From Nannocystis bainbridge (GTDB taxonomy: Bacteria; Myxococcota_A; Polyangia; Nannocystales; Nannocystaceae): 64,000 nucleotides of DNA. Each line of letters begins with the position of its first letter. The stretch's first letter is position 1. Of the stretch, positions 6,705-25,449 are shown piece after piece. The translations under genes were made by a program, and so were the position numbers. Under the pieces are notes generated by a model. That model was not told the DNA's origin. It searched no databases and saw only the letters and a program-made list of their open reading frames with translations. The stretch lies in contig NZ_JAQNDL010000001.1 in NCBI RefSeq assembly GCF_028368995.1, forward strand, positions 1,856,001-1,920,000, in the 5' to 3' direction.

Positions 6705-6757
6705 CGCGGCTACCTTACCGCACCACTCGCCGCGCGGGTGTCCGGTGACTCCTGCCG

Positions 6758-8924: not shown

Positions 8925-9689
8925 ATGTCTCGCCGCCAGTTCCTCCGCGTGGTCGCCGGCGCCGGCGGCCTGCTCGGTGCGTGCCGCACCACGGGCGCCC
9001 AGCCGCCCGTGGGCGGCCGCGCCGAGATCCGCGCGATCTGCTTCGACCTGTTTACCCTGTTCGACCCACGCGGCGTGGAGCGGGCCGCCGAGGCCGTCGC
9101 CCCCGGTCAGGCCGCAGAGCTGTGCCGCGACTGGCGCGTCCGACAGTTCGAATATGCATGGCTGCGCGCCACCGCCGACCAATACCGCGACTTCGAGTTC
9201 GTCACCGGCGAGGCCCTCGATTACGCCGCCGGGGCACGCGGTCTCTCGCTGTCCGCCGCCGAGCGCCGCCGCCTCGTCGCCGCATACTCCGAGCTCACGC
9301 CGTGGCCCGACACCCGCGCCGCCCTCGACGCATGGCGGCGCGTCGGCCTGCGCCTGGCCCCCCTCGCCAACTATTCGCCGGCGATGCTCGATCGCCTGCT
9401 CACGCACGCCGGGCTCGCCGACCTGTTCGACGACCAGATCAGCACCGACCGCGCCCGGACCTACAAGCCGAGCCCGCGGGCCTACGCACTCGGACCGACC
9501 GCGCTCGGCGTCCCGCGCGAGCAGATAGTCTTTGCCGCGTTCGGCGGCTGGGACGCCGCCGGGGCCGCCTGGTACGGCTTTCCCACGTTCTGGCTCAACC
9601 GCCTCCAAGTCGCGCCCGAGGCCCTGTCAGCCGCCGCGCATGCGACTGGCGCGACGCTCGCCGATCTCGCCGCGTTCGTCGCCGCTTGA
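8925..9689 (+). CDS. Haloacid dehalogenase type II with Tat/lipoprotein signal
   Basis: SRRQFL twin-Arg followed by LLGAC; CFDLFT motif I, YKPSPRAY and WDAAGA. Confidence 0.85.
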   Translation: MSRRQFLRVVAGAGGLLGACRTTGAQPPVGGRAEIRAICFDLFTLFDPRGVERAAEAVAPGQAAELCRDWRVRQFEYAWLRATADQYRDFEFVTGEALDYAAGARGLSLSAAERRRLVAAYSELTPWPDTRAALDAWRRVGLRLAPLANYSPAMLDRLLTHAGLADLFDDQISTDRARTYKPSPRAYALGPTALGVPREQIVFAAFGGWDAAGAAWYGFPTFWLNRLQVAPEALSAAAHATGATLADLAAFVAA

Positions 9690-9699
9690 ACCGTCGAGG

Positions 9700-9934
9700 A
9701 AGCCGCGTCTGGCCATCGGGGATGGGCCAAGATCGCGGGGCCTTCGTCGGCTGGCTCGACCCAGGGGAGCGGCGTGCGAATCTCGACGGCGAGCGGCACC
9801 GTCGGGTCGTGGATGCCGTCGGCGAAGCCGCCGCGCGACGAGTGGAACGCGAGCGACAGGCCGTTCATCTGCTGATAGAAGCTCCGCAAGGCAGCCGGGA
9901 GGGCGAACCCCAGCCGGGACACGGGAACACTCAT
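9700..9934 (-). pseudogene. SMI1/KNR4 (SUKH)-like immunity gene remnant
   Basis: LGFALPAALRSFYQQMNG matches the SUKH N-terminal signature; the remainder is degenerate and the 3' boundary is approximate. Confidence 0.45.
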
Positions 9935-11992: not shown

Positions 11993-14545
11993 ATGCGGGC
12001 CATGACCGCGGCGCTGTCCGAAGCCTTCACGCAGCTCCGCAGCTCCGAGCGCGGTCTGACCGACCGCGAGGTACGAGACCGCCTCGCGGCGCTCGGACTC
12101 AACGAGGTCGTGCCCCCCCAGCGCGCCAACCTGGTGCGCGACGTCCTGGCCCGCTTCGCCAACCCATTGATCGCCATCCTCGCGTTCGCCAGCGTCGTCT
12201 CGCTGTCGCTCGGGGACCTCGTCAACGCGAGCATCATCCTCGTGATGATCGCCCTGAGCATCGCGCTCGAGACGTTTCAGACCCGCCGTTCGCAGGCCGC
12301 GGCCGAGCGGTTGCGGGGTCGCGTCGCGCCCGAGGCCACCGCCCTGCGAGACGGGCACTTCATCAGGGTCCCGCAGCGCGAGCTGGTGCCGGGCGACGTC
12401 GTGCGCCTGGCCGCCGGCGCCCTCGTCCCGGCCGATTGTCGCCTCGTCACCGCCAGGGACTTGCACGTGCAACAGGCCGCCCTGACCGGCGAGCCCCTGC
12501 CCGCCGAGAAGGAGGCCACCGCGGGCCCGGCCGGCGATGTCCGCGATCCGGCCGGGATGCCCCACGCCGTCTTCCTCGGCACCTCGGTCGTCAGCGGTGT
12601 CGCCACGGCGCTGGTGGTCGCCACCGGCGCGCGCACTCAATTCGGCGACATCGCCCGCGCGCTCGCCCGCCGGGGCCCGCGAACCGAGTTCGAGGTCGGC
12701 ATGTTCGACTTCGGCGCCTTCATCCTGAAGACGGTCGTCTTCCTGGTGCTGTTCGTGTTCGTGATCGCGGCGGCGGGCCACCGCCCCGTGCTCGAGGCGC
12801 TGCTGTTCGCGCTCGCGCTCGCCGTCGGGCTCACGCCTGAGTTCCTGCCGATGATCACGACCGTCACGCTCGGGGAGGGCGCGCTGCGAATGGCGAAGCA
12901 GCGGGTCATCGTCAAGAACCTGGCGGCGATCCAGAACCTCGGCAGCATCGACGTGCTGTGCTGCGACAAGACCGGCACCCTCACGGAGGGGCGGATGACC
13001 CTCGAGCGCCACGTCGATCCGTTCGGGGCCGCGGACGAGCGCCCGCTCCGGCTCGCCAGCATCAACAGCTTCTTCGAGAGCGGCATCGACTACGGCTTCG
13101 ACGACGCGGTGCTCGACCGCGCCGGCATCGATCCGCTCGACGCCGCCGTGCTGCGCCACGAGCACCCCGATCTGCGGGGATGGCGAAAGCTCGACGAGCT
13201 CCCCTTCGACTTCGAACGCCGCCGCATCAGCATCCTCGCCGAGAAGGACGGCGCGAGCCTCCTCGTCACCAAAGGCGCGCCGGAGGGCTTGCTGGCGCAG
13301 GCGACCTCCTGCGAGACCGGCGGCGCGCGGCGGCCCCTCGACGCCGAGCTGCGCGCGCGCTGCGAGGCGACGTTCCGGGAGCTCTCGACCCACGGATACC
13401 GCGTGCTCGCCGTGGCCTACAAGGAGATCACCGACGTCGCGCCGCTGCGCGCGGGCGACGAGGCCGGCCTCACCCTCGCCGGCTTCCTCGCCTTCGTCGA
13501 CGCGCCGCTCCTCGGCGCGGCTCGAGTGCTCGAGGCGCTCGCCGCCGAGGGTGTACGGGTCAAGATCGTCAGCGGCGACAACGAGCTCGTCGTGCGCCAC
13601 ATCGCCGATCGCGTCGGCATCGCTCCGGGCCAGATCCTCCTCGGCGCCGAGGTCGACCGCCTCGGCGACGCCGCGCTCGGCAAGGTCGCCGAGGAGACCC
13701 GCCTCTTCGCCCGGGTCTCGCCCGCGCACAAGAGCCGCATCATCCGCGCGCTCCGGGCCCGCGGTCACGTCGTCGGCTACCTCGGCGACGGCATCAATGA
13801 CGCGCCCTCCCTCCACGGCGCCGATGTCGGGATCTCCGTCGCCGGCGCCGTGGACGTGGCCCGCGACGCCGCCGAAGTCATCCTGCTCGAGCGCGACCTC
13901 GGGGTCCTCCTCGCCGGCATCCTCGAGGGTCGGCGCGCCTTCGGCAACGTCATGAAGTACGTCCTGATGGGGACGAGCTCCAACTTCGGCAACATGGTCA
14001 GCATGGCCGGGGCCTTCGTCGTCCTGCCGTTCTTGCCGATGCTCCCGACCCAGATCTTGCTCAACAACTTCCTTTACGACCTGGCGCAGATCACGATCCC
14101 GACCGACAACGTCGACCCCGGCTTCCTCAAGAAGCCGCGGCGGTGGGACATCGGCCTGATCCGTCGCTTCATGGTCGTCCTCGGGCCGGTCAGTTCGCTC
14201 TACGACATCCTCACGTTCTACGCGCTCCTCCACCTGTTCCACGCGTCGCCCGCGTTGTTCCACACCGGGTGGTTCGTCGAGTCCCTGGTCACGCAGACGC
14301 TGGTGTTGTTCGTCATTCGTACCGCCGCGCGCCCGTGGGACAGCCGGCCGAGCCGACCGCTCGTGCTCACCGCGCTGGCCGTCGTAATCACCGCGCTCGT
14401 GCTGCCCTGGACGCCGCTCGCCACGCCGCTCGGGTTCGTCGCGCTACCGCCGGGCTTCTTCCTGTTCCTCGTCGTCGTCTCCGTCACCTATCTGGCGTTC
14501 GTCGAGGGCGTCAAGCGCCGGCTGTTCGCTCGGTTCCTCGAGTAG
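11993..14545 (+). CDS. mgtA: Mg2+-transporting P-type ATPase (P3B)
   Basis: LTGE, PEFLP, DKTGTLT, GDGINDAP, SSNFGNM and LLNNFLYD motifs; the start could be further upstream (11864). Confidence 0.9.
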   Translation: MRAMTAALSEAFTQLRSSERGLTDREVRDRLAALGLNEVVPPQRANLVRDVLARFANPLIAILAFASVVSLSLGDLVNASIILVMIALSIALETFQTRRSQAAAERLRGRVAPEATALRDGHFIRVPQRELVPGDVVRLAAGALVPADCRLVTARDLHVQQAALTGEPLPAEKEATAGPAGDVRDPAGMPHAVFLGTSVVSGVATALVVATGARTQFGDIARALARRGPRTEFEVGMFDFGAFILKTVVFLVLFVFVIAAAGHRPVLEALLFALALAVGLTPEFLPMITTVTLGEGALRMAKQRVIVKNLAAIQNLGSIDVLCCDKTGTLTEGRMTLERHVDPFGAADERPLRLASINSFFESGIDYGFDDAVLDRAGIDPLDAAVLRHEHPDLRGWRKLDELPFDFERRRISILAEKDGASLLVTKGAPEGLLAQATSCETGGARRPLDAELRARCEATFRELSTHGYRVLAVAYKEITDVAPLRAGDEAGLTLAGFLAFVDAPLLGAARVLEALAAEGVRVKIVSGDNELVVRHIADRVGIAPGQILLGAEVDRLGDAALGKVAEETRLFARVSPAHKSRIIRALRARGHVVGYLGDGINDAPSLHGADVGISVAGAVDVARDAAEVILLERDLGVLLAGILEGRRAFGNVMKYVLMGTSSNFGNMVSMAGAFVVLPFLPMLPTQILLNNFLYDLAQITIPTDNVDPGFLKKPRRWDIGLIRRFMVVLGPVSSLYDILTFYALLHLFHASPALFHTGWFVESLVTQTLVLFVIRTAARPWDSRPSRPLVLTALAVVITALVLPWTPLATPLGFVALPPGFFLFLVVVSVTYLAFVEGVKRRLFARFLE

Positions 14546-14597
14546 CGGCAGCAGACGGCGCATTGTGTCGTGGCCGGCAGCCGAGCGCACGGCATGC

Positions 14598-15485
14598 GAT
14601 GCCCCGGCGCTGAAGGCCGCCGACATCGGTGTCGCCATGGGCGGGCGCGGCACCGACGTGGCGCGCGAGGCGGCCACTCTCGTGCTGCTCGACGACGACT
14701 TCACTTCGCTGGTGGACAGCGTCCGCTCGGGCCGCCGTATCATCGACAACCTCCGCAAGGCGCTCGCATACATCCTCGCGGTGCACGTGCCGATCGTCGG
14801 TCTCACCTTGATCCCCGTCTTTCTTGAATGGCCGCTCGTATTGCTGCCGATCCACATCGCGTTCCTGCACCTCGTGATCGACCCGGCTTGCTCCGTCGTC
14901 TTCGAGGCCGAGCCGGAGGAGTCCGATGTGATGACCCGTCCGCCGCGGGACCCGCGGGCGCCGCTCTTCGATCGCCGCTCCATCGCCCTCAGCCTGGTTC
15001 AGGGGGCGATCGTGATGCTCGTCGTCGTCGCGGTCTACGGGCTCGCGTTGAGTCGTGGGCGCGGAGGAGCCGACGCCAGGGGACTGACGTTCACCACCTT
15101 CATGGTGGCCAACCTCGGCCTCATCTTCACCAATCGTACGTGGTCTCGGGTGCGGACCGCGACCAGGGGTCGAAATGCTGCGCTCTGGTGGGTGACCGGC
15201 GGCGCGGTCGTCTTCCTCGCGCTCGTCCTTTACGTGCCGGGCCTGCGGGAGCTGTTCCGGTTCGCCCCCCTGCGACCGCGCGACATCCTCTTCTGCATCG
15301 GCGCGGGCGTCCTGAGCGTGTCGTGGTTCGAAGCCTTCAAGGCCATCCGGCCGCGTGAGAGGCACGGGGTCGCTGCGGTCGCACCCGATGAACGACGGGC
15401 TCCGGCGAGCGAAACCTTGCTCCGCGGGGAGGCAGCCCCGACAGAACGGCCCTCCGCTGGCGTGGTCCGAAAAGCCAGCCCATGA
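14598..15485 (+). pseudogene. C-terminal fragment of a P2-type cation ATPase
   Basis: Begins abruptly at DAPALKAADIGVAMG; lacks DKTG and the whole N-terminal two-thirds. Confidence 0.85.
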
Positions 15486-16691: not shown

Positions 16692-17901
16692 ATGCAGACG
16701 ATGGTCACAGCAGCCTCGACGTTCCTCGTCTCGTTCCTCACCATGGACGGCGAGCCGGCGACCGAATCGGCGCGAGCCGGGCTCACTGCGGTCGAGTCGC
16801 TCGGCAAGCACCTCTTTTTCGACGAATCGCTTTCGATCGGGAGCAATCAAGCGTGCGCGGCGTGCCATGGCCGCGATGTCGGCTGGACCGGGCCCGTCGA
16901 GGACATCGACGCCCACGGCGCCGTCTACGAGGGTTCGGTTCCGGGGCGCTTCGGCCCGCGAAAGCCGCCGAGTAGCGCATACGCGTCGTTCAGCCCGCCG
17001 CTGCACCGCCCCCCCTGCGGGCGAGTTCGTCGGGGGCAACTTCGGGGACGGCCGGGCGACCGGCGAGAAGCTCGGCAATCCGGCAGCCGATCAGGCGCAG
17101 GGGCCTTTCCTCAACCCGGTGGAGCAGGCGCTCCCCGACGCGGCCGCGCTCGTGACGCGGGTGTGCAGCCTGAAATCAGAGTACTGGTTGCTGCTGCGCT
17201 TCGTGTGGGGCCTCGCCGTCTGTGACGACGTCGACGCCGCATTCGCAGCGATCGCGCGGTCGATCGCCCGCTACGAGGCTTCGCGCGAGATGAGCCCGTT
17301 CAGCTCGAAGTTCGACCGGTACCTCTCGGGAGAGACCGAACTCACCGACCAGGAGCAGAGGGGCCTGGCGCTGTTCAAAGGCGAGGCCAAATGCAAAAAC
17401 TGCCACGCGATCGCCGGTGCGGACCAGGGCGGCCCGCCGCTCTTCACCGACTTCACGTTCGCCAACATCGGTGCACCGCGTAATCCGGAGAACCCATATT
17501 ACGATCAGCCGCCCGCCATCAATCCGCTCGGCAAGGCGTACGTCGATCTCGGCCTGGGTGGCTTCCTCGCCACCCGCCCGGAGTACGCCGAATATGCAAC
17601 GGTCAACGAGGGTAAGCATCGGGTGCCGACCCTGCGCAACGTCGACCGCCGGCCACGGCCCTCGTTCACCAAGGCGTACGGACACAATGGGTACTTCAAG
17701 AGCCTGGAGGAGCTGGTCCACTTCTACAACACGCGCGCTGTCCTGCCCCAGTGTGCGGCGAACGACCCCGGAGAGAGAGTTACGTGTTGGCCTGCGCCCG
17801 AGGTGCCGCGCAACCTCGATGTCGACGTCGGCGATCTCGGACTCACGCCGGCCCAGGAGGAAGATGTCGTCGCGTTCTTGCGCACGCTGACGGACAGGTG
17901 A
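16692..17901 (+). pseudogene. Di-heme cytochrome c peroxidase/MauG family, frameshifted
   Basis: LGKHLFFD and CAACH lie in one frame; CKNCH, VPTLRNV and YGHNG lie in another. The switch is at the C7 tract 17009-17015. Confidence 0.85.
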
Positions 17902-17958
17902 ATCCGGCCCCGCGCGCGCCCGGCGAGCCGAGGGTCCTCGGGCCAAGCACCCCGCGCG

Positions 17959-18049
17959 GGGTTCGCCGGCTCGTCGTCCGCCGAGGTCACGCGCGTGCCC
18001 GCCGACGCTGGCTGAGCCTCACAGGGGTCCCACGCGACGCCATCCGGCA
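17959..18049 (+). repeat. 91-bp direct repeat, copy 2
   Basis: Matches 5053-5143. Confidence 0.9.
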
Positions 18050-18074
18050 ACCGGCGACCTCCACCGGCTCGCGA

Positions 18075-18734
18075 TCAGGGCGGCGATGAGTCGGCTGCGG
18101 CCTCTTTGCGCAGCTTGGACCAGACGCGCAGGAGCTCCGCGCTGCGCGGGTCGAGGCTGCCGCGGGCGCGCACCGCCGCCTCGACCACGAGCATGCGCGC
18201 CGTCAGGGCCGGCTGCACGTCGACAGACCGGAGGTCGCGCAACGTATTGGCCGCCGCCTCGATGAAGTCGACCGGCGCGACCTCCTCCATGAATGTGAGC
18301 ACCGGCTCGACCGACTCCGCCTTGGGCACCGCGCCGATCATCTCGAGGAACGTGACCACCTTCCAGCGCGGCCACAGATCGCCGAACTTGAGGATCACCT
18401 CCCAGCACAGCGGCAAGATCGCCGGTCCGTAGACTCTGCGGGCGTTCATGGCGTACTGGGTCCAGATCCGCGAGATGCCGGTGACTCGCTTGCCCTCGGC
18501 CTCGACGTTGACCTGGTCGAGCTCCGCGAGCACCTGACGATACAGCGCCGCGTGCTCGCTCCAGCCGCGGACGATCGCCGCCAGTGTCCGCCACAGCCAG
18601 TCGGGGTCGCCCGCGAACGCCGGCAGGTAGGTCATCACCGCTGTCTGGTCGACGAGCACCCGGTCGCGCTGGTGCGCGTAGTCCTCGCCGTGAAGTCTTC
18701 GAAGCGCCGTGAACTCTGGCCAATGCTGCGTCAT
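18075..18734 (-). CDS. Helical hypothetical protein, putative immunity partner of the PAD
   Basis: ATGA overlap with the PAD stop; 219 aa beginning MTQHWPEF. Confidence 0.75.
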   Translation of the reverse strand: MTQHWPEFTALRRLHGEDYAHQRDRVLVDQTAVMTYLPAFAGDPDWLWRTLAAIVRGWSEHAALYRQVLAELDQVNVEAEGKRVTGISRIWTQYAMNARRVYGPAILPLCWEVILKFGDLWPRWKVVTFLEMIGAVPKAESVEPVLTFMEEVAPVDFIEAAANTLRDLRSVDVQPALTARMLVVEAAVRARGSLDPRSAELLRVWSKLRKEAAADSSPP

Positions 18735-20590
18735 ACCTGCTGCTCCCACCACCAGCGATCGACCGGTGGCTCCCGCTTGCTGTTCGTCCCGCAGTGGATC
18801 TCCCCCGAATTGACGTGATACGTGAAGAAGTCGTCGACGAATTCGAGGTCGACCCCGGTCAGTCCCGGCGGCCCGAGCGCCGCGCGGATGTGGCTCTCGA
18901 ACTGGCACACCCCGTCGATCATCGGCCCGAACGGCTTGGGGATCACGAGCCGCACCGTCTTGTCGGGTTTCGTCAATACCAGCATATTGACCACCCCTGG
19001 CGTATAGGCGATGAAATACGTTCGGTCCAGCATGAACAGCACCGGCAGCGGGATTATCTCGGATTCGGCGAGGTCGAGCTCTTCCATGAGCTTGGCCTTG
19101 ACGCCGTCGAGGTACTCCTGCACGATCACCTGCACGTCCATGAACGTCGCGTCGTCGAGCATCGCGTCGACTGTGCGCAGCGGGTAGTTGTCGTACAGCT
19201 CCTGCGGCGTCGCGTCGGTCGGCGGCCGATCGGCCCGCGGCGGCGGCGGCGTGAGCTGCAGCAGCGGCGTGGCGCCCTGCCGCGCCGCCCTCATTCGGCG
19301 CAGGATCGTCAACGCTTCGTTCGGGCTGGCGAGCGCGACCTTGAACTTCTTGGGCGCGTTCTTCATCGGCACGAACGTCATCACTTCGTCGACGTGGCCG
19401 ACCTCGAGCCACCCGGTGTCGAGCGTGAACGGCTCCTGGACCTGCTGCGCGCGCAGGAAATCGACGACATCGGGCTGCATGTTGCGTCGGGCGCCGCCGT
19501 CGACGTGCTCGCCGTAGACCAGGCGCCCGAACTTGTACTCCTTGCCGCGACGGCTGTGGGTAAACGGCGGCGAACACTCGAGGTTGCCGAACGAATCGAG
19601 GGTACCGCCAATGCCCGGGGGCATCGCCTGGACCCACCCGAAGCCGGGCTCGAGCATCCGCTCGCGCGGGTAGCGGTCGATGGTCCCCCACCTCATCTCG
19701 CTGCGATTGTTGGCGGTGCGCAGCACGACGGGCAGGTGGCGCGCCGCCGGGGGGCCGGTCCGCGGCAGGCTCGAGAACCCGAGCTCCATCGCGTCCTGCA
19801 ACCAGCGATCCCTGCCGTGCGGCGGCGGTGCGACCTCCGGGGCGGGCAACCCGGCGGCGGCGACCTGGGCCGCGAGGTCGCGGCGAAACTCCGCGTTGTC
19901 GATCGCCTCGCCGACGTACACCCGCGTGGTCGGGTCGAGGTGGTTGAACGCGATCCACGGCGCGACCCGCATCCGGACCTGCTCCTCGTACGTCCCGGAG
20001 CCGCCTCGCTCGATCCGCAGCTTGATCACGACCTCGCCCGTGAAGCTGCCCTGAGCGTACATCACCGCCTCGACCCCGAGCTCCTTCTCGGTGAAGTTCA
20101 GGTCCGTCAGCGGCCAGCTCAGCACCGCCGCGGTGCCGCCCTGGGCCGGGTCGCCGACCCCCGCGCCGAGCACCTGCGCGGCCCCGCTGCTGCGGCTGGC
20201 GAACACCCGCAAGCGCGGGGCATCTTCGGCCGAGACCTCGAGGAACCCGCGCCACGAGCCCGGCGCCGGCGGGTGCCCGGCCGCGCGCCGGATCACCAGC
20301 GGGGCGATGTCGTCGGGATCGGGCGCCGTGTTGATCTGCGCGTCCTCGTTGTCGCAGCAGTGCTGCCGATCCTCGTCGTCGTTGTTGCAAAGGATGATCG
20401 CGCCCTTGCTGCCGGGGCCCCACGCCCAGCGGTCGTTGTGGCTGCGATCGTCGTCGACGACGCCGTCGCGGTCGGCGTCGACGTGCAGGTGATACTCGAC
20501 CAGGCACGCCTCCATCGTATTACCCGGGCGGGTCGCCGCCGTCGGCCCGCGCTCGCTCTCTCCCCGCTGGACTCCGCCACCTAATCCCAT
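18731..20590 (-). CDS. Protein-arginine deiminase (PAD_M + PAD catalytic domain)
   Basis: DRWLQD, LDSFGNLECSPP, WLEVGHVDE and GEIHCGTN motifs; AGGAGG RBS and TGATG coupling at 20590. Confidence 0.93.
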   Translation of the reverse strand: MGLGGGVQRGESERGPTAATRPGNTMEACLVEYHLHVDADRDGVVDDDRSHNDRWAWGPGSKGAIILCNNDDEDRQHCCDNEDAQINTAPDPDDIAPLVIRRAAGHPPAPGSWRGFLEVSAEDAPRLRVFASRSSGAAQVLGAGVGDPAQGGTAAVLSWPLTDLNFTEKELGVEAVMYAQGSFTGEVVIKLRIERGGSGTYEEQVRMRVAPWIAFNHLDPTTRVYVGEAIDNAEFRRDLAAQVAAAGLPAPEVAPPPHGRDRWLQDAMELGFSSLPRTGPPAARHLPVVLRTANNRSEMRWGTIDRYPRERMLEPGFGWVQAMPPGIGGTLDSFGNLECSPPFTHSRRGKEYKFGRLVYGEHVDGGARRNMQPDVVDFLRAQQVQEPFTLDTGWLEVGHVDEVMTFVPMKNAPKKFKVALASPNEALTILRRMRAARQGATPLLQLTPPPPRADRPPTDATPQELYDNYPLRTVDAMLDDATFMDVQVIVQEYLDGVKAKLMEELDLAESEIIPLPVLFMLDRTYFIAYTPGVVNMLVLTKPDKTVRLVIPKPFGPMIDGVCQFESHIRAALGPPGLTGVDLEFVDDFFTYHVNSGEIHCGTNSKREPPVDRWWWEQQV

Positions 20591-21369
20591 CACTCCTCCT
20601 CTGCCCAGAAGCGATCGAGGCACCCGATCGCCCCGCGCAGCAGTGCTTCGATCCGCGTCCGCTCGTTCGTGTCCCCGACCTCGGCGAGCGCCCGCCTGGC
20701 CCACATGAACTGCGGATCGCCATGAAGATCGCCGCCGAAGATCACCGCGAGGCCGACGAACAGCGCCTGCCCGCGCTCGCTGATCAGCGCGAAGCTCCGC
20801 GCCTTCGCCAGCGCCTGTTCGACCGTCCGGACCAGCGCCGGCTCGCCGATGGCCTCGCACTTGGCCGGGAACACCCGGCGGAGCAGCGCCACCAGCCGGG
20901 CCCGCAGGTCGAGCCCCGCCTCGTCGCTCAGCGTGCGCTCGGGCTGCGCGAACTGCTGCAGCTCGGCCGCCGCCCGACCCGGCTGCGAGCGCCCGGCGGC
21001 GTCGAGGTCGTCGCTGGCCGTGCGGTCGAGGAAGCGCCAGGCGGCGTCGCGGAGCCGGTCGAGGCGCGCGAACTCGCCGTCGCCCGCGCGCAGCGGCTCC
21101 ACCGCCCACGCGTGCTGTGGGTCGGTGTCGAAGCCGGCGCCGAACATCAGCATCAGCTCGATGTAAATTCGCGTGCCGCGCTCGGAGACCAGCCCGTACG
21201 TCTCGGCTCGCGTGCAGCCGACGACGATCAGCTCGCCGAGCTCGGGATCGCCGACGATCCGCAGGTGCCGCGGGCTGAACCGCTTGAGGTGCGCCAGCAT
21301 GCGCGCCTCGAAGTCGGCGAGCGCCGCGCGCTCGAACGCCCCCAGTTGTGTGGCGCTGATCTTCAGCAT
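20590..21369 (-). CDS. DUF4123-associated co-adaptor-like protein with two internal repeats
   Basis: Two copies of ...RA..YG/FA..SERG......L...FG.....DPQ..WA. Confidence 0.75.
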   Translation of the reverse strand: MLKISATQLGAFERAALADFEARMLAHLKRFSPRHLRIVGDPELGELIVVGCTRAETYGLVSERGTRIYIELMLMFGAGFDTDPQHAWAVEPLRAGDGEFARLDRLRDAAWRFLDRTASDDLDAAGRSQPGRAAAELQQFAQPERTLSDEAGLDLRARLVALLRRVFPAKCEAIGEPALVRTVEQALAKARSFALISERGQALFVGLAVIFGGDLHGDPQFMWARRALAEVGDTNERTRIEALLRGAIGCLDRFWAEEE

Positions 21370-21376
21370 CGCGGAC

Positions 21377-22498
21377 TCACTCGATCACGCCCATCCGCAG
21401 GCCGTGAGTGGCTCGTTCGAACAGGACCGCGTCGACCGCTCTTCGCAGCTCCGATCTCTGCTCGGGCGTCATCACCTCGGCGAAGGTGCATAGCACCCGT
21501 GGGTCGTAGAAACGAAAGAACCTCGGCTTTGCCTCGCCCTCGACTTCGACCTTGAGGAATTGGCGAAAGTGGCGGCGGACCTTCTCGAAGCCGGCGCTGC
21601 TCTCCACATAAACACCCCAGGCGTCGCCCCAGCCCTCGGTGACGAGGCGCCGCAGCAGCCCCGAGCTCGGTTGCAGGTGGACGAGGTAGGGAGCGATGTC
21701 GTCGAAGGCGCGGCCCTGTTCGCCGTCGTAGAGGGAGGCGTAGGGGTCGATGCTCTCCTCGACGAGCTGGAGGGCGCGTTCGGAGCGGGCGGCGTCGATG
21801 ATGGCGTAGAGGTTGCCGGAGCCGCAGCGGCGCGCGAGCTCGGTGAGGGCGTCGAGGGCGGCGGCGGCGGCGTCGATGGGTTCGGGGGGCGGGGTATGGT
21901 CCTCGACGAGGAAGCGATAGGCCGTGCGGACGGCGGTCATCCAGCCGCGGTTGGCCATCTCGCCATACCATGTGGCCACACCATTGATAGCAAGGCGGTG
22001 CGTACCCTCGGCCTGGACGTGGGCGCTGACGCCGTCCCATACGATCTGAAAGTGCGGTGACCCGGCGGTGTCGCCATGGACGACAAAGTCGGCCTGAGCG
22101 CTGCCGACGGTGCGCGGGACGCCGAGGTCGAGCACGAGCTTGCGGTAGGTCTCGCGCCCGGACCACACCTGCAAGACGCCGCGGCGACGCACGGACGGAC
22201 CGTGCGGCAATTGCGGGTAGCGGCGAAATGTGTAGTCGATCTCCTCGAGCTGGTCGGCGTATTCGGGGTCGATGTCTTCGAGGTTGCGAGCCGCGAGCGG
22301 GCCGAGGGTGGTGCGCATGCGATCTTCCTCGTGAGGCACGCGGCCCTGTTTGGTCTGCTCGGCGATGAACTGGAGCTGTGCCTCGATCTGCCCGAGCAGC
22401 GGCCAGCGCGAGGGGTCGAGCGTGCGGGTGCGGCGGCGGGCCTCGACGAGCACCTGGGCGAAGGCGTCGCGCGACAGAATCCGCATCATGTCGGCCAT
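21377..22498 (-). CDS. Tsi6-like immunity domain + degenerate FHA + DUF4123 adaptor fusion
   Basis: N-terminal QLQFI...TLGPLAARNLEDIDPEYADQL resembles Tsi6. C-terminal LYAIIDAAR...APYLV...FFRFYDPRVL is the DUF4123 signature. Confidence 0.85.
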   Translation of the reverse strand: MADMMRILSRDAFAQVLVEARRRTRTLDPSRWPLLGQIEAQLQFIAEQTKQGRVPHEEDRMRTTLGPLAARNLEDIDPEYADQLEEIDYTFRRYPQLPHGPSVRRRGVLQVWSGRETYRKLVLDLGVPRTVGSAQADFVVHGDTAGSPHFQIVWDGVSAHVQAEGTHRLAINGVATWYGEMANRGWMTAVRTAYRFLVEDHTPPPEPIDAAAAALDALTELARRCGSGNLYAIIDAARSERALQLVEESIDPYASLYDGEQGRAFDDIAPYLVHLQPSSGLLRRLVTEGWGDAWGVYVESSAGFEKVRRHFRQFLKVEVEGEAKPRFFRFYDPRVLCTFAEVMTPEQRSELRRAVDAVLFERATHGLRMGVIE

Positions 22499-22507
22499 GG
22501 TGTCGCC

Positions 22508-23521
22508 TCAGACGTTGCGGCTGGAGAGGTGGAAGAGCCGCGGGACGTACACCTGCGTGCCGCCGCCCTGGCACGTGATCTGCTCACCGCGATCCGTGGC
22601 GGTGCTCGGGAAGGTCCAGGTGTCGATCACGGAGGCGGCGGTGCTCTTGAGGCCGAACGCAGGGGCTTCGCCGTACTCGACGGTTCGTCTGTCTCTTGAG
22701 ACACGTGTGCCGTCGGGCCCGGAGACGATCGCGGAGGTGCCGAGCTGCTCCGGCGTCAGGTCCGGATCGAGCGCGAAGTACTCGCCGTTGACCCCACCCG
22801 GGTAGCCGCGCTGGTGAAGCGTCCGGGCGGCGACCGCGATCACCTCGACGGGCTGCGAGAGGTCGATCGCGCGGATGTGCGAGGTCAGCCTGCTCGGCTT
22901 GAACTTCTCGCCGGCGTGGGCGGCGTAGAACTGATAGGCGACGGCGACTCTGGCGGCGACCCGTTCGGCGTCGAGCCCATCGTTCAGGTTGGGCTGGGCG
23001 GCGAGCCCCTGCTTGTTGAGCAGCGAGCTCGCCAGCAGATCGCGACCGAGCTCGGCGCCGGACGGAGGTCGGTCGTCGTCGAGGGTCGCGGTGTCGGGGT
23101 CGGGCGGGACGACCTCGGCGGAATCGTCGTGCTGGTCCATCTCCTGGCGCTTGCGCTCGCATTCCTCGCAGAAGGGGGTGCCGCGCCGGGCGGCGCCGCG
23201 GAAGGTGAAGGCCTGGGTGGAGTCGCCGATCACGACCGTCGGGCAGCCGGCGACGATCAGGTCGCCAGAAACGTGAGAACCAGGATCCGATCTGCGGGCA
23301 GCGGGACGACTGTTGATCAGCACGGTCGACGAGCCCTGCCTGATCCTGTCGGTCGGACCGACCGGAAAGCAAACGACGCTGTCCCCCTGGCGCGCGGCGG
23401 GCAAGAACCCGATGATCACGTTGGCGCTGCCGCTGAAGATCGGACCGCCGACGTGAGGGACGGGGCCGGGCTCGGCCTTCGGGCACACGTGGAAGTCGCT
23501 GATTCGAGCGGCGTCAGGCAT
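22508..23521 (-). CDS. PAAR spike protein with C-terminal Tse6/Ntox46-like NAD(P)+ glycohydrolase
   Basis: DAARISDFHVCP, PAARQGD and PAARRSD repeats; toxin motifs IDLSQPV, GEYFA, PEQLG, KSTAA..IDTW and GGGTQ. Confidence 0.88.
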   Translation of the reverse strand: MPDAARISDFHVCPKAEPGPVPHVGGPIFSGSANVIIGFLPAARQGDSVVCFPVGPTDRIRQGSSTVLINSRPAARRSDPGSHVSGDLIVAGCPTVVIGDSTQAFTFRGAARRGTPFCEECERKRQEMDQHDDSAEVVPPDPDTATLDDDRPPSGAELGRDLLASSLLNKQGLAAQPNLNDGLDAERVAARVAVAYQFYAAHAGEKFKPSRLTSHIRAIDLSQPVEVIAVAARTLHQRGYPGGVNGEYFALDPDLTPEQLGTSAIVSGPDGTRVSRDRRTVEYGEAPAFGLKSTAASVIDTWTFPSTATDRGEQITCQGGGTQVYVPRLFHLSSRNV

Positions 23522-23703
23522 GGATCCGGCGATCCTATCATAAGCCGGACGCGGCGACCCGAGACGCGTGCTGCGGCCGAATGTGGATGGCCGAGATCGC
23601 GCCGGGCGGAGGCGAACACCAGACGAGGCGAGGCTCAGGTGGGTATCGTGATACCCCAATTGACGGGCGCCGGCGATCGCGTGCATGCTCCGCGTTCGTC
23701 GGC

Positions 23704-25449
23704 GTGTCGACCTCGTTCTCACCGCAGATCGGCGAGCGCTTCGCCGGCCGCTATGAGCTCAAGTCGCCGCTCCGGAGCGAGGGCGCGGTGCGGGCGTTCC
23801 TGGCGCTCGATCACCATGCGGGCCTCGACGTCGCGCTGTTGCTGCTCGACCCGACGTGTGCGCACCCGAACGCTTGGGCTGCGTTCGCCCGGATCGTCGC
23901 CGCGGCGACGGCCAGTAAGATCGCGGGGCTGGTGCTGCCGCAGGGGGTCGCCAGCACGCCGCCAGCCCCGCCGTTCTGCCTGGCCGAGCCGCGGGTGTTC
24001 CGCGGGTTCGACAAATTGCGCGACCAGGGGCCGATGCCGTGGCGGCGCGCCCTGATGCTCGGCGAGCGCACGGCTGAGATCCTGCACGCGGCCCACGCAG
24101 CGACGGGCGTCGCTCACCGGATCCTGACGCCGTCGCGCTGCACGCTGACGATTCGCGATGACGTCAGGGTGATCGACTTCGGCGTGGCCGAGCTGGAGCT
24201 CGGCAGTCCGGACGAGGCCGGGTATCGCGCGCCGGAGCAGCGGCAAGGCGGCGGCGACTCGCGCAGCGACGCATATACGCTCGCGGTCATCCTGACCGAG
24301 CTGATCACGAATCAGAAGTCGGCCGGACAGACGCCTCCGCGGCTGCGCTCGCTCGCCGCGGTGCCGCAGCCGGTGGACGATTTCATGGCCAGGGCGTTGT
24401 CTCAGGATCCGGCGCAGCGGCCCGATCTCGCGGCGATGCGCGCCGGGCTCCGCGAGCTGCTGAGTGCCGCCGAGGCGACGACCGCGGCGGCTCCTCGGCC
24501 CAAGCCCAGACGCGATTTCTCCTCGCTCTCGATCCGCTCGGCGCCGCCGGGCGCGAGGGCGGCCCCGTCCGTGATGCCGTCGACGAAGCCGGGACCCGCA
24601 GTCGGAGTGGGCCCGGGTCTGGCGAATGTAGCGAGTCAGCCGGTACGGCCATCGTTACCCTCGATCGCGAAGGCTGCGGCTCCGCGGATGTCGAGCGCAG
24701 AGGTCTCGTTTCAGGCACCCGCGGCCTTCAAGACCGAGCTCCTCCCCCCCGCCCCGCCGACTGCGGCACCTGCGGCCTTCAAGACCGAGCTCCTCCCCCC
24801 GGTCTCATCGACTCCGGCACCTGCGCTCACTGACAGGACTGAGATCTTTCCTCCGGTCTCATCGACTCCGGCACCCCCGCTCACCGACAGGACCGAGATC
24901 TTTCCTCCGGTCTCATCGACTCCGTCCCCCCCGCTCACCGTCAGGACTGAGCTCCTCCCTCCGGTCCTGCGTTTGACGCCGGTGAATGGCGAGCGGACCG
25001 AGGTCGTGCGAGCGGACATCGCAATCGTTCGCGAAGAGCAGGCCGCACCCGAAAAATCGCTCCGAGGTTCGTTCGCGCTGGCCCAGGCGAAGGCGAGCGC
25101 AGCAGTCCTGGTGGCGAGCCCAGGAGCGGCTGCGGGCGCAGACCCGCCGACCGAGAATATCGCCGACCCACTGCCCCCCGTCGATACGACGCTGCTATTG
25201 CCGCCCGAACCGGCACGCCCGGTTCCGGCGGTCGAGCCGCCAGCTTTCGACCCGCTGCCTCCGGAACCGCAGGCTCGGTCTACCGCCGAGGTTCGACCAC
25301 CGGCCGATCGGGTTCAGGCGACGCCGTCGGCGCGATCGCCGACGATCGCTAAGCCGGTGAAAAGTTCGTTCAAGTCGACGTGGATGTGGATCGGCGCCCT
25401 ATGCCTCGCGGGGCTCGTCCTCGCAGCGCTGTGGCTGCTGATCACCTGA
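23704..25449 (+). CDS. Membrane-anchored Ser/Thr pseudokinase with Pro/Thr-rich repeats
   Basis: GRYEL, DFG and APEQ are present, but the beta3 Lys (VALLLL) and HRD (HRI) are lost; C-terminal TM. Confidence 0.8.
   Translation: MSTSFSPQIGERFAGRYELKSPLRSEGAVRAFLALDHHAGLDVALLLLDPTCAHPNAWAAFARIVAAATASKIAGLVLPQGVASTPPAPPFCLAEPRVFRGFDKLRDQGPMPWRRALMLGERTAEILHAAHAATGVAHRILTPSRCTLTIRDDVRVIDFGVAELELGSPDEAGYRAPEQRQGGGDSRSDAYTLAVILTELITNQKSAGQTPPRLRSLAAVPQPVDDFMARALSQDPAQRPDLAAMRAGLRELLSAAEATTAAAPRPKPRRDFSSLSIRSAPPGARAAPSVMPSTKPGPAVGVGPGLANVASQPVRPSLPSIAKAAAPRMSSAEVSFQAPAAFKTELLPPAPPTAAPAAFKTELLPPVSSTPAPALTDRTEIFPPVSSTPAPPLTDRTEIFPPVSSTPSPPLTVRTELLPPVLRLTPVNGERTEVVRADIAIVREEQAAPEKSLRGSFALAQAKASAAVLVASPGAAAGADPPTENIADPLPPVDTTLLLPPEPARPVPAVEPPAFDPLPPEPQARSTAEVRPPADRVQATPSARSPTIAKPVKSSFKSTWMWIGALCLAGLVLAALWLLIT
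24715..24966 (+). repeat. Coding tandem repeats (51-57 bp, about 5 units)
   Basis: Units read TE(L/I)(L/F)PP(V/A)xxTxAP. Confidence 0.85.

Follow-up and report, generated by a model that had tools for sequence, protein, structure and literature searches.

What does a peptidyl-arginine deiminase (PAD), a kind of enzyme familiar chiefly from animals, do in a bacterial gene cassette that also encodes the spike tip and adaptor of a T6SS? The cassette lies in a 64,000-nt stretch of DNA from the soil myxobacterium Nannocystis, hereafter the window. We consider it probable, at roughly 0.72, that it is a T6SS module loading the PAD as a cargo toxin, with the fifth gene as its antidote; the support for this effector interpretation as a whole is computational. 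In the literature searched, we found no T6SS effector of the PAD type, and its use as a T6SS toxin would represent a weapon chemistry that we have not found described.

Organization of the cassette

The cassette occupies positions 18075-23521 on the minus strand and, as read from the sequence, comprises five co-oriented open reading frames:

22508..23521, minus strand: gene 1 (P0001), PAAR and Ntox46, 337 aa (Pfam)
21377..22498, minus strand: gene 2 (P0002), Tsi6, FHA-like region and DUF4123 N-lobe, 373 aa (Pfam; FHA from relatives)
20590..21369, minus strand: gene 3 (P0003), putative co-adaptor, 259 aa (structure match, no family)
18731..20590, minus strand: gene 4 (P0004), PAD_M and PAD deiminase, proposed cargo effector, 619 aa (Pfam)
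18075..18734, minus strand: gene 5 (P0005), proposed PAD immunity protein, 219 aa (linkage and predicted complex)

The junctions read exactly as the preliminary description had them, with gaps of 9 nt between genes 1 and 2 (TGA ggcgacacc ATG) and 7 nt between genes 2 and 3 (TGA gtccgcg ATG), followed by a TGATG overlap of genes 3 and 4 (20592-20588) and an ATGA overlap of genes 4 and 5 (18734-18731). The TGATG overlap depends on the long, 619-aa start of the PAD. This start is ambiguous, the database copy being 594 aa long and beginning with MEACL (ATG at 20515); the 619-aa form is covered to 100% by relatives of 615-619 aa. The order PAAR-toxin, Tsi6/DUF4123 and PAD, likewise proposed earlier, is borne out by Pfam matches above the curated cut-offs. 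None of the five proteins has a hydrophobic N-terminus or a 19-residue window with a mean Kyte-Doolittle hydropathy of at least 1.6, a heuristic result that fits proteins without Sec or Tat leader or TM helix and that agrees with the absence of such a signal noted before for the PAD.

A toxin-bearing spike-tip protein and a proposed split adaptor

Gene 1 combines a PAAR_motif (residues 19-81, 63 bits) with an Ntox46 domain (residues 204-308, 35.3 bits, cut-off 25); its match to the NCBIfam model T6SS_PAAR_dom falls under the cut-off of that model. Gene 2 contains Tsi6 (residues 16-90, 35.2 bits) and, close to its C-terminus, DUF4123 (residues 230-349 of 373, 109.9 bits), with no adaptor C-lobe behind it; its top NCBIfam match, under cut-off, is the Tle1 chaperone Tla1. 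This arrangement resembles Tse6-Tsi6, an NADase/immunity pair of the families Ntox46 (PF15538) and Tsi6 (PF18660). Both families match here above their Pfam cut-offs, and the N-terminal part of gene 1 contains the PAAR domain. It differs from Tse6-Tsi6 in that gene 1 is devoid of TM-like segments (maximum KD19 of 1.32), that the cassette contains no DUF1795/Eag chaperone gene, and that Tsi6 is fused to the adaptor. The FHA domain also assigned to gene 2 in the preliminary description did not hold up as well as Tsi6 and DUF4123: there is no Pfam match at E<=0.1, and the assignment relies on a weak Atlas lead (0.87) and on relatives with 33-42% identity (P0208-P0222), in which PF00498/PF16697 adjoins DUF4123. 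Distant relatives of gene 2 combine FHA and DUF4123, and one has all three domains. The Tsi6-DUF4123 architecture occurs in about 75 clusters; a minority of these have a named source, which in every case is Nannocystis.

Three paralogues of gene 1, with 58-60% identity, are encoded elsewhere on contig C1, and the genome holds four PAAR-Ntox46/Tsi6-DUF4123 pairs, a point the preliminary description had missed. Different genes follow each pair, one of them with a Peptidase_M15_3 match, as would be expected of a slot in which the cargo varies.

Gene 3 has no Pfam or NCBIfam match. Its AF2 model (pLDDT 89.1, 13 helices) depicts a stand-alone, internally duplicated helical protein, of which residues 5-113 superpose on residues 199-302 of Tap3 (9r8g_B; rmsd 2.5 Å over 103 aligned residues) with a Z-score of 12.7, a value within the chance range for helical models according to the note of the search tool. 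Among 48,161 PDB representatives this was the top match, the next scoring 7.4. In the solved Tap3-Tke5 complex, the C-terminal helical domain of Tap3 touches the effector (PMC12909789, available sections). The model thus supports a resemblance of gene 3 to the C-lobe with which Tap (DUF4123) adaptors bind the effector, in line with its earlier label as a co-adaptor. Homologues of gene 3 stand immediately upstream of the PAD in 11 of the 80 PAD loci from other genomes that we surveyed, and a paralogue follows a VgrG in the same genome. Where DUF4123 proteins adjoin gene-3-like genes, they are short and consist of the N-lobe only (180 aa in L018, 181 aa in L011).

Compared with Tap3 (9r8g; PMC12909789) and Tap6/Tap14 (PMC11582642), as far as the available parts of both papers describe them, the cassette shares the DUF4123 N-lobe in gene 2 and a C-domain-like fold in gene 3, but distributes the lobes over separate proteins, duplicates the C-lobe-like unit, and has a PAD cargo without MIX, Rhs or lipase domain. 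Split Tap proteins, TecT and co-TecT, have been described (PMC11582642). In the P. aeruginosa TseT/TecT/co-TecT/PAAR4 system, according to the same partly available source, a DNase effector with an immunity gene beside it is tethered to PAAR by an N-lobe-only DUF4123 protein and a separate effector-binding co-chaperone. Here, the cargo would be a PAD instead of a DNase, the PAAR protein has its own Ntox46 toxin, and the N-lobe of the adaptor is part of a fusion with Tsi6 and an FHA-like region; the likeness of gene 3 to co-TecT is one of described role. In the available part of the account by Colautti et al. (PMC11582642), none of five DUF4123 neighbourhoods from 9 proteobacterial genera has a PAD.

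The cassette is probably best pictured as an orphan T6SS module for the spike tip that carries two payloads. In this scheme, gene 1 would form a PAAR tip with a Tse6-type NADase domain of its own; gene 2 would provide Tsi6 immunity, an FHA-like region and the conserved Tap/Tec N-lobe docking on VgrG or PAAR; and gene 3 would be a separately encoded C-lobe that binds the effector and is missing from gene 2, forming a split adaptor akin to TecT/co-TecT. Held on the spike by genes 2 and 3, the PAD would be fired into a neighbouring cell and irreversibly convert peptidyl-arginine to citrulline, while gene 5 would guard the producer and its kin. Loading, secretion, protein citrullination, toxicity and compartment are parts of this scheme that we infer, while the analysis itself shows the gene order, the domains, the conserved catalytic residues, the recurrent linkage and the predicted complex.

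That a single spike carries both the NADase and the PAD is suggested by gene order. Possibly, though this appears the less convincing option, the PAD is instead T6SS cargo attached via its adaptor to VgrG, independent of PAAR-Ntox46, the two toxins travelling on separate spikes and the Tsi6-DUF4123 fusion being a matter of gene economy. Characterised DUF4123 adaptors join effectors to VgrG (PMC11582642 and PMC12909789, available sections), the genome offers VgrGs at 13 loci, and at L008, L011 and L028 the PAD follows a VgrG without a PAAR-toxin. Against this, the N-lobe-only TecT was reported to dock on a C-terminal PAAR extension (PMC11582642, available sections), and the adaptor gene follows the PAAR gene in 4 of 4 paralogous modules. 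Since PAAR sits on the VgrG trimer, an adaptor bound to VgrG would still allow the two toxins to travel on the same spike. It speaks against the proposed scheme that no VgrG is encoded in the window, the nearest being about 70 kb off on each side; three TssC loci, together with the VgrG loci, provide the T6SS core whose presence elsewhere in the genome the preliminary description had asked to confirm.

The PAD and its partner recur in T6SS and tail clusters

In the survey, a gene 5 homologue directly follows the PAD at 22 of 80 loci, giving 23 with the window. T6SS genes flank the PAD at ten of these (our own, L005, L008, L011, L015, L016, L018, L028, L039 and L062), gp43N-OmpA-PG_binding-PAD fusions in sheath-containing phage-tail-like clusters account for three (L013, L019, L045), and six have only a gene-3-like co-adaptor; four, two of which end at a contig edge, have no T6SS, tail or co-adaptor gene. 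Alteromonas, for example, has the order Hcp-VgrG-DUF4123-coadaptor-PAD-partner with PAAR opposite, Lysobacter TssK-TssL-VgrG-PAD-partner, a Polyangia MAG DUF2169-PAD, and two Polyangiaceae PAD-PAD-partner-VgrG; in a delta MAG and a Rhodospirillales MAG the PAD likewise directly follows VgrG or adaptor genes. Around the remaining 58 PADs, these scans turned up neither T6SS nor tail genes; as they were single-seed jackhmmer searches on a small set of open reading frames, zeros outside the clade mean 'not found' rather than 'absent'. The survey had been proposed as a way to disprove a recurrent linkage of PADs to DUF4123/PAAR/VgrG, and it failed to do so.

In a tree, the 21 gene-5-linked PADs included as rows form one clade (SH-aLRT 93), in which at least nine phyla are mixed. 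TssC was found in 16 of the 22 genomes with a gene-5-linked PAD, versus none of 12 genomes with cyanobacterial PADs. In the other six of the 22, among them an Actinoplanes isolate whose PAD ends a 2067-aa multi-enzyme protein, the pair occurs without TssC having been found; it is consequently not restricted to T6SS and might in principle consist of an enzyme and its regulator. As a mobile module, the PAD-partner pair is present also in phage-tail-like clusters; this mobility, extending to genomes in which TssC was not found, had escaped the preliminary description.

Gene 5 as a candidate active-site inhibitor

Gene 5, too, has no Pfam or NCBIfam match. Its AF2 model (pLDDT 91.8) is an all-alpha helical solenoid, for which a structure search returned only generic HEAT/ARM-like matches. 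In the predicted complex with the PAD, ipSAE values were 0.90, 0.90 and 0.89, compared to 0.00 for the best control; of 80 solved complexes, 58 attain the corresponding mark, as against 2 of 110 mismatched pairs, a calibration that holds only roughly with user alignments, as used here. The runs share at least 91% of contacts with a partner pLDDT of at least 91, and the interface covers W263, D266, H399 and C600, with a loop (residues 76-93) that would lie over the active-site cleft. Recurrent downstream linkage and this complex both favour the earlier suggestion that the gene following the PAD acts as an immunity gene, and we propose gene 5 as an inhibitor of the PAD active site. Tre1 is a T6SS toxin that ADP-ribosylates arginine, and Tri1, the cognate immunity protein, occludes the active site. 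The PAD would similarly inactivate its targets through changes to arginine side chains; the fold differs, and deimination removes the charge. Because deimination has no known reversal, 'eraser'-type immunity is unlikely.

With linkage, T6SS core, adaptor and complex models in agreement, the notion of an injected cargo effector with its own immunity gene, as put forward before, gains in strength. It seems improbable, in comparison, that the PAD is a physiological enzyme with gene 5 as its regulator, serving for example endogenous citrullination or arginine metabolism restrained by the inhibitor, the two not being secreted and lying next to the PAAR/adaptor module by chance. Apart from the six genomes in which TssC was not found, L006, where the cassette stands alone between GAPDH- and RecA-like genes, would suit such a pair, and the available part of PMC8826395 gives the roles of bacterial PADs as unknown. 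However, T6SS or contractile-tail genes flank 13 of 23 loci, compared to 0 of 58 for other PADs, the PAD and gene 5 are translationally coupled to the adaptor genes, the scrambled phylogeny of the clade is typical of mobile toxin modules, and the predicted inhibitor blocks the active site in the manner of many immunity proteins.

Site of action and target

Hydrophobic leaders are present in 13 of 22 gene 5 relatives, implying a periplasmic site of action; these export leaders had not been noticed before. Since gene 5 itself is leaderless and the adaptor to which Tsi6 is fused is cytoplasmic, the prey cytoplasm is the most likely site of action of the PAD studied here, although the compartment is uncertain. 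Animal and cyanobacterial PADs need Ca2+ (PMC8826395, available sections); if the same applied here, activity in a low-Ca2+ cytoplasm would be questionable. Ca2+ would be available from the cytosol and organelles of a eukaryotic target, such as an amoeba, fungus or nematode grazer, in which case the only task of gene 5 would be to shield the producer until export. In soil, myxobacteria encounter eukaryotic microbes, and PADs modify eukaryotic proteins, for example histones (PMC8826395, available sections), but we regard such a target as unlikely: the leaders on partner proteins suit periplasmic protection of kin from incoming toxin instead of pre-export protection, the OmpA and peptidoglycan-binding fusions point to bacterial envelopes, and the co-encoded Ntox46/Tsi6 is an antibacterial system.

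The deiminase

Gene 4, the only PAD in the genome, matches PAD with 325.8 bits and PAD_M with 65.9 bits (Pfam). In the PDB, human PAD3 matches it best (E 1.7e-73, chain residues 115-660), and its closest relatives are from Nannocystis. The catalytic residues in WLQD (D266), GHVDE (H399, D401) and GEIHCGTN (C600), reported as retained in the preliminary description, are invariant in a 15-sequence alignment and throughout a wider one of 68 rows. In the latter, the ligands of Ca site 1 are kept, and those of site 2 are not: none of the 21 clade rows has an acidic residue at the E351 position, and 14 of 21 have Arg at the D369 position. R374 of PAD4 contacts the substrate backbone, and 19 of 21 clade members have Arg at the position aligned with it. 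Although the pentein superfamily includes free-arginine and agmatine deiminases, it is hardly probable that the delivered enzyme depletes free arginine or acts on another small guanidino compound, given this conserved Arg, top matches to peptidyl-arginine deiminases over the full PAD_M+PAD length, and protein citrullination by a cyanobacterial PAD (PMC8826395, available sections).

Porphyromonas gingivalis PPAD, secreted via a type IX system, citrullinates host proteins. Like the proposed effector, it is a bacterial enzyme citrullinating proteins outside the producer cell, but it belongs to an unrelated deiminase family and has neither injection apparatus nor immunity gene. With the three-domain PADIs of animals and cyanobacteria and the two-domain PADIs of fungi and actinobacteria, as the available sections of PMC8826395 present them, gene 4 shares PAD_M, the catalytic domain, the four catalytic residues and Ca site 1; it differs from the three-domain forms in the absence of PAD_N, and the loss of Ca site 2 in its clade matches the two-domain forms. 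In the main text of PMC8826395, 'secret*', 'toxin' and 'operon' do not occur. The N-terminal prealbumin-like domain that gene 4 does not have is present in at least one relative (L010, Pfam), and L012, L014, L017, L018 and L062 have N-terminal sequences similar to that of L010.

Composition of the cassette

Five co-oriented genes make up the cassette, and their ORFs and junctions are as the preliminary description had them, with gaps of 9 nt and 7 nt followed by TGATG and ATGA overlaps.

Genes of the cassette in transcription order (window coordinates, minus strand)
22508-23521, minus: gene 1 (P0001), start at 23521, 337 aa; Pfam PAAR_motif and Ntox46
21377-22498, minus: gene 2 (P0002), 373 aa; Pfam Tsi6 and DUF4123
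20590-21369, minus: gene 3 (P0003), 259 aa; no Pfam family
18731-20590, minus: gene 4 (P0004), 619 aa; Pfam PAD_M and PAD
18075-18734, minus: gene 5 (P0005), 219 aa; no Pfam family

Pfam matched in the cassette all six families named for it at the outset (PAD, PAD_M, DUF4123, PAAR_motif, Ntox46 and Tsi6), and NCBIfam gave only sub-threshold matches to PAAR and Tla1, a DUF4123 chaperone. By a Kyte-Doolittle heuristic, none of the five proteins contains a TM-like or leader-like hydrophobic segment, which for P0004 agrees with the earlier reading of a PAD devoid of a Sec or Tat signal.

Genes 1 and 2 had been proposed to encode an NADase toxin and its Tsi6 immunity side by side, and both domains indeed exceed their Pfam cut-offs (Ntox46 in gene 1, 35.3 bits against 25; Tsi6 in gene 2, 35.2 bits against 26.9). 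In the Tse6/Tsi6 pair, the PAAR domain is flanked by TM segments and an Eag (DUF1795) chaperone is involved. The pair in the cassette shares Ntox46 and Tsi6 with this system, but neither of these features: PAAR in P0001 is not flanked by TM-like segments (maximum KD19 1.32, below 1.6), and no DUF1795 chaperone was matched by Pfam among the five cassette proteins. An FHA domain had also been assigned to gene 2; Pfam does not call it in P0002 and an Atlas lead is weak (0.87), but more distant relatives support the assignment, as they do carry the domain together with DUF4123 and, in one case, with both Tsi6 and DUF4123. The Tsi6-DUF4123 architecture itself is common to about 75 clusters, most of which have no source name, while those that do all stem from Nannocystis. 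A sequence search of the PDB with gene 2 yielded no match below E 0.1.

The host assembly (11.05 Mb, 5 contigs) contains three loci for the sheath protein TssC, 13 VgrG loci and a single PAD, so the T6SS core expected elsewhere in the genome was found; the window has no VgrG, the nearest lying about 70 kb off on each side. Four paralogous PAAR-Ntox46 and Tsi6-DUF4123 gene pairs, 58-65% identical, occur in the genome, three of them outside the window (loci L085-L087).

Genes that accompany the four paralogous pairs (C1, the contig of the window)
Window: P0003-PAD-P0005
C1, 1,560,146-1,562,314 (1.56 Mb): a 394-aa protein with a Peptidase_M15_3 match and a 341-aa protein
C1, 1,533,087-1,535,198 (1.53 Mb): proteins of 191 and 637 aa without a family
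C1, 1,781,441-1,783,589 (1.78 Mb): pair convergent with VgrG, a P0003 paralogue and a 266-aa protein

Taken together, the four sets look like a constant spike-tip and adaptor module with a variable cargo slot, and suggest that a modular design of PAAR-toxin, immunity-adaptor and variable cargo is realized four times in one genome.

PADs with a gene 5 homologue recur beside injection machinery

To place the cassette in a wider context, we collected PAD loci from other genomes, taking the best 80 of 575 confirmed stretches, one genome per species, with 10-kb flanks. All their ORFs were scanned with jackhmmer seeds and key genes were checked with Pfam; as the scans used single seeds on a small ORF set, a zero means not found. 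A homologue of gene 5 lies directly 3' of the PAD in 22 of the 80 loci (L005-L019, L022, L024, L028, L032, L039, L045, L062). Together with the window these amount to 23 loci, 10 of which are flanked by T6SS genes and 3 by phage-tail-like genes, while 6 have only a P0003-like gene and 4 have none of these. The linkage of PAD to DUF4123, PAAR or VgrG is hence recurrent, T6SS genes flanking the window PAD and nine of its relatives.

Surroundings of PADs linked to a gene 5 homologue
T6SS, window and L005: PAAR-Ntox46 and Tsi6-DUF4123 (in the window directly upstream of P0003-PAD)
T6SS, L018 (Alteromonas): Hcp-VgrG-DUF4123-P0003-like-PAD-P0005-like; PAAR on the opposite strand
T6SS, L011: TssC ... 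VgrG-DUF4123 ... PAD-P0005-like
T6SS, L008 (Lysobacter): TssB/TssC, then TssK-TssL-VgrG-PAD-P0005-like
T6SS, L062: DUF4123-P0003-like-PAD
T6SS, L015: DUF2169-PAD
T6SS, L016: PAD-P0005-like-DUF4123
T6SS, L028 and L039: PAD-PAD-P0005-like-VgrG
Phage-tail-like, L013:7856-11710, L019:7901-11698, L045:4332-9557: PAD as C-terminal domain of 1265-1741-aa fusions
P0003-like gene upstream only: L006, L010, L012, L014, L017, L032
No T6SS, tail or P0003-like gene: L007, L009, L022, L024 (L009 and L024 end at contig ends)

The same scans of the remaining 58 loci did not find DUF4123, PAAR, VgrG, Hcp, DUF2169, TssK, sheath or gp43-like genes, the sole match being half of a P0003-like protein in L054. TssC was detected in 16 of the 22 gene-5-linked genomes (not found, among others, in those of L013, L017, L022, L024 and L062) and in 0 of 12 genomes with cyanobacterial PADs.

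The three phage-tail-like fusions combine a DNA_circ_N (Mu gp43-like) N-terminus with OmpA, PG_binding_1 and PAD, each followed by a P0005-like gene. Their clusters include a contractile sheath gene; in L013 there is also a weak match to a gp44-like hub, and in L045 a VgrG-like gene. Such a cluster may encode a prophage tail, a tailocin or an eCIS. The L013 cluster encodes a second gp43N-OmpA-PG_binding protein (17495-21691) whose approximately 1000 C-terminal residues have no Pfam match, and which may carry another warhead on the same delivery domain. In L028 (7845-11866) and L039 (7854-11890), both from Polyangiaceae MAGs, two diverged tandem PAD paralogues are followed by one P0005-like gene and then by VgrG; a PAAR-like N-terminal domain considered for these PADs was rejected, as Pfam showed none. 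In Actinoplanes aureus (L022:5462-11665), a single 2067-aa ORF comprises Peptidase_S8, PG_binding_1, flavin amine oxidase, PG_binding_1 and PAD; the P0005-like gene behind it has no leader, and TssC was not matched in this genome.

In a quick maximum-likelihood tree of 68 PAD rows, all 21 P0005-linked rows form one clade (SH-aLRT 93), separate from a cyanobacterial clade (12 rows), a mixed clade (7) and a myxobacterial, actinobacterial and planctomycete clade (23), with L025 and L063 as singletons and three vertebrate rows as outgroup. Sixteen rows stayed outside the tree, 14 from loci without the exact motif used to pick ORFs and two short ORFs (L032_short358 and L084_short129); the main PAD ORF of L084 was kept, and L028 and L039 are represented by their downstream PAD copy only. 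The P0005-linked clade interleaves Myxococcota, Acidobacteriota, Planctomycetota, Pseudomonadota, Fibrobacterota, Thermodesulfobacteriota, Actinomycetota, Deinococcota and Gemmatimonadota, which is the pattern that a horizontally mobile module would leave. For the window, the G+C content of the cassette (0.66-0.73) is not set apart from that of its surroundings and so gives no compositional hint of a recent transfer.

The PAD keeps its catalytic residues but lacks the animal-type calcium switch

P0004 matches PAD with 325.8 bits (profile positions 3-394 of 395) and PAD_M with 65.9 bits, both above the curated cut-offs, and human PAD3, PAD4, PAD2 and PAD1 chains match it at E 1e-73 to 1e-69. 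Since its alignment to human PAD3 (residues 115-660) starts only at residue 115, PAD_N is missing. The catalytic Asp, His-x-Asp and Cys recognized from motifs in the preliminary description proved to be conserved: D266, H399, D401 and C600 align with the PAD catalytic set (D350, H471, D473 and C645 of PAD4, a numbering checked on the PAD3 alignment), and none of them varies in any of the 68 rows. In the gene-5-linked clade, these residues and the ligands of Ca site 1 (Q265, E269, E338) are kept in 21/21 rows, and an Arg aligned with PAD4 R374 in 19/21. The animal ligands of Ca site 2, E351, D369, S370 and N373, align with A267, R291, T292 and N295 in P0004; across the clade, the E351 position is acidic in 0/21 rows and the D369 position is Arg in 14/21. 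By alignment, the ligand set of the animal-type calcium switch is therefore absent from P0004 and its clade. According to Cummings et al. (PMC8826395), this switch is confined to the three-domain clade, so its loss does not exclude P0004 from the PAD family; two-domain PADIs are described there as devoid of Ca sites 2 and 4, the same loss of site 2 as in the P0004 clade, and a cyanobacterial three-domain PADI as absolutely Ca2+-dependent. Any Ca2+ requirement of P0004 would matter for where the enzyme can act.

Two starts are possible for the PAD, one giving the 619-aa form and the other, an ATG at 20515, the 594-aa form of the collection copy; the full 619-aa form is spanned by relatives of 615-619 aa that are as little as 65% identical. 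The closest PADs are those of Nannocystis sp. RBIL2 (81%) and N. pusilla (85%). Six PADs of other loci (L010, L012, L014, L017, L018, L062) have an extra N-terminal CarboxypepD_reg/prealbumin-like domain that is missing from P0004, confirmed by Pfam in L010 and judged by similar sequence in the other five.

Gene 5 is a candidate PAD inhibitor

The P0005 family alignment has 22 rows. The P0005 model is all-helical (pLDDT 91.8) and resembles generic HEAT/ARM-like helical repeats; the best VIA-align match (Z 9.7) had many ties, and P0005 is not assigned to a particular fold family. Foldseek found no match in the PDB at E<=0.001 for P0005 or P0003.

For the complex of PAD with P0005, prediction gave ipSAE values of 0.90, 0.90 and 0.89, compared with 0.00 for the best control; 58 of 80 solved complexes reach this ipSAE mark, as do 2 of 110 mismatched pairs, counts that are only rough with our own alignments. 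Agreement between runs was at least 91% of contacts, and partner pLDDT at least 91. The predicted interface places P0005 loop 76-93 against PAD residues 262-263, 266, 396-399, 591-596 and 600, and the model thereby puts the loop over the catalytic Asp, His and Cys, as is seen for many immunity proteins. We know of no complex of this kind and P0005 has no relative in the PDB, making it unlikely that the prediction reproduces a structure from the training data. The adjoining immunity protein proposed for this position is thus, by prediction, one that binds the PAD effector.

By a heuristic and by eye, a hydrophobic leader was recognized at the start of 13 of the 22 P0005-like ORFs (L007-L012, L014-L018, L024, L032), in some together with a lipobox-like Cys; the other 9, like the window copy, are leaderless. 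Consequently, the periplasm is the probable site of action of some PADs of the clade, in agreement with their fusions to OmpA and PG-binding domains, while the window PAD probably acts in the cytoplasm. The split suggests periplasm-acting and cytoplasm-acting versions of one toxin-immunity pair.

Gene 3 resembles the missing half of a DUF4123 adaptor

A word-index homologue search with P0003 gave only 9 close relatives, and its family alignment (15 rows) was therefore built from translated loci. The model has 13 helices (pLDDT 89.1). Although Foldseek against the PDB gave E 0.48 at best and an Atlas search only unnamed clusters, exhaustive alignment to 48,161 PDB representatives returned as top match 9r8g chain B, which is Tap3, a T6SS adaptor whose structure was solved together with that of its effector Tke5. 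P0003 residues 5-113 superimpose on Tap3 199-302 with an rmsd of 2.5 A over 103 residues and Z 12.7 (next match Z 7.4), although for helical models values up to a Z of about 13 may also arise by chance. According to passages in Colautti et al. (PMC11582642), DUF4123 adaptors follow the same two-lobe plan, which is divided between two proteins in TecT/co-TecT: the N-lobe protein docks on an extension of PAAR, and binding of the effector falls to the co-chaperone. P0002 would match the N-lobe protein: its DUF4123 domain (residues 230-349 of 373) leaves 24 residues and no C-terminal effector-binding lobe. The DUF4123 proteins adjoining P0003-like genes in L018 (180 aa) and L011 (181 aa) are similarly short, as are ORFs of 179-198 aa with a DUF4123 match in three genomes with orphan P0003-like-PAD cassettes (G006, G013, G028); in G006 and G028 this ORF lies 8-11 kb from a TssC match on the same contig, and G013 has no TssC match. 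All of this fits a split adaptor, and the Tap C-lobe-like fold and the position between adaptor and effector argue for the co-adaptor role that gene 3 had been given. The cassette would be a second clear case of a split Tap adaptor, one in which the adaptor is fused to an immunity domain.

P0003-like genes are also found ahead of genes other than PAD, in L011, in L095 and in the case of the paralogue after VgrG in the present genome, which makes them an accessory family rather than a PAD-specific partner. The T6SS-adjacent locus L011 has three copies, two half-length and one full-length (6702-7091, 9609-9929, 16864-17616 minus), and the genes that follow them differ (encoding a 354-aa protein, the PAD and a 598-aa protein with a LysM match), as expected if the family supplies effector-specific co-adaptors. 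Among 401 Myxococcota genomes, 6 contain the family by a first-look filter of limited sensitivity (6 candidates scored per genome); none of the six neighbourhoods includes a PAD, and that of L095 includes PAAR and DUF4123.

A proposed citrullinating toxin

Taking the parts list, linkage statistics, residue conservation and two structural predictions as observed, we infer the loading, co-delivery, substrate and toxicity of the PAD cassette as follows. PAAR-Ntox46 would cap a VgrG spike; the Tsi6-FHA-like-DUF4123 protein would neutralise the NADase and dock on the spike with its Tap N-lobe, and P0003 would bridge this adaptor to the PAD. On firing, NADase and PAD would both enter the prey, where the PAD would citrullinate arginines, while P0005 would block it in kin.

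More broadly, we give a probability of about one half to the reading that two-domain bacterial PADs with a gene-5-type inhibitor are cross-phylum citrullinating toxins fired by contractile injection machines. They would travel as T6SS cargo via a split Tap, DUF2169 or direct VgrG linkage, or as C-terminal warheads on Mu-gp43-like baseplate proteins of phage-tail-like particles, in periplasm- and cytoplasm-acting versions told apart by export of the immunity protein. If so, protein citrullination would, at least in this PAD clade, have a main role in warfare between bacteria rather than in regulation, and the irreversible loss of arginine charge a new toxin chemistry.

The statement that no T6SS PAD effector has been described was borne out among the listed titles and abstracts of matching open-licence PMC and bioRxiv papers, where no PAD was linked to T6SS or toxins. 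The main text of an adaptor-marker survey (PMC7714669) does not mention PAD, arginine or PF03068, although its tables of 92 effector families might list one, and the main text of the PADI evolution paper (PMC8826395), which calls the role of bacterial PADs 'fertile ground for investigation', does not mention secretion, toxins or operons. As T6SS effector-immunity cassettes are themselves well known, we rate as new the warhead chemistry and the fused immunity-adaptor. If confirmed, an irreversible, charge-erasing protein modification would join the chemistries that bacteria use on each other, bacterial two-domain PADs would gain a concrete, testable function, and P0005 would be a natural protein inhibitor of the PAD active site, of interest since PAD inhibitors are sought for human disease.

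Surroundings of the cassette

The cassette flanks encode a P-type ATPase, a cytochrome c peroxidase-like protein, a weakly kinase-like protein and HlyD/ABC genes, which makes the cassette an isolated island, in a window whose G+C content of about 69% renders long spurious ORFs abundant. The kinase-like neighbour, a divergently transcribed 622-aa protein (23581-25449, plus), has a sub-threshold Pkinase match (21.6 bits, cut-off 31.7), Pro-rich tandem motifs (FKTELLPP; TDRTEIFPPVSSTP) and a C-terminal hydrophobic stretch, and may be worth attention because of the FHA-like domain in gene 2. Directly 3' of the full-length P-type ATPase gene (12002-14545) lies a 306-aa ORF (14565-15485, plus) with Cation_ATPase_C as its sole domain, which may have arisen as a fragment or by duplication of a C-terminal module. 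Finally, no RNA run was listed as containing 18075-23521, four soil runs from one study matching only 6-7% of the words sampled from it.
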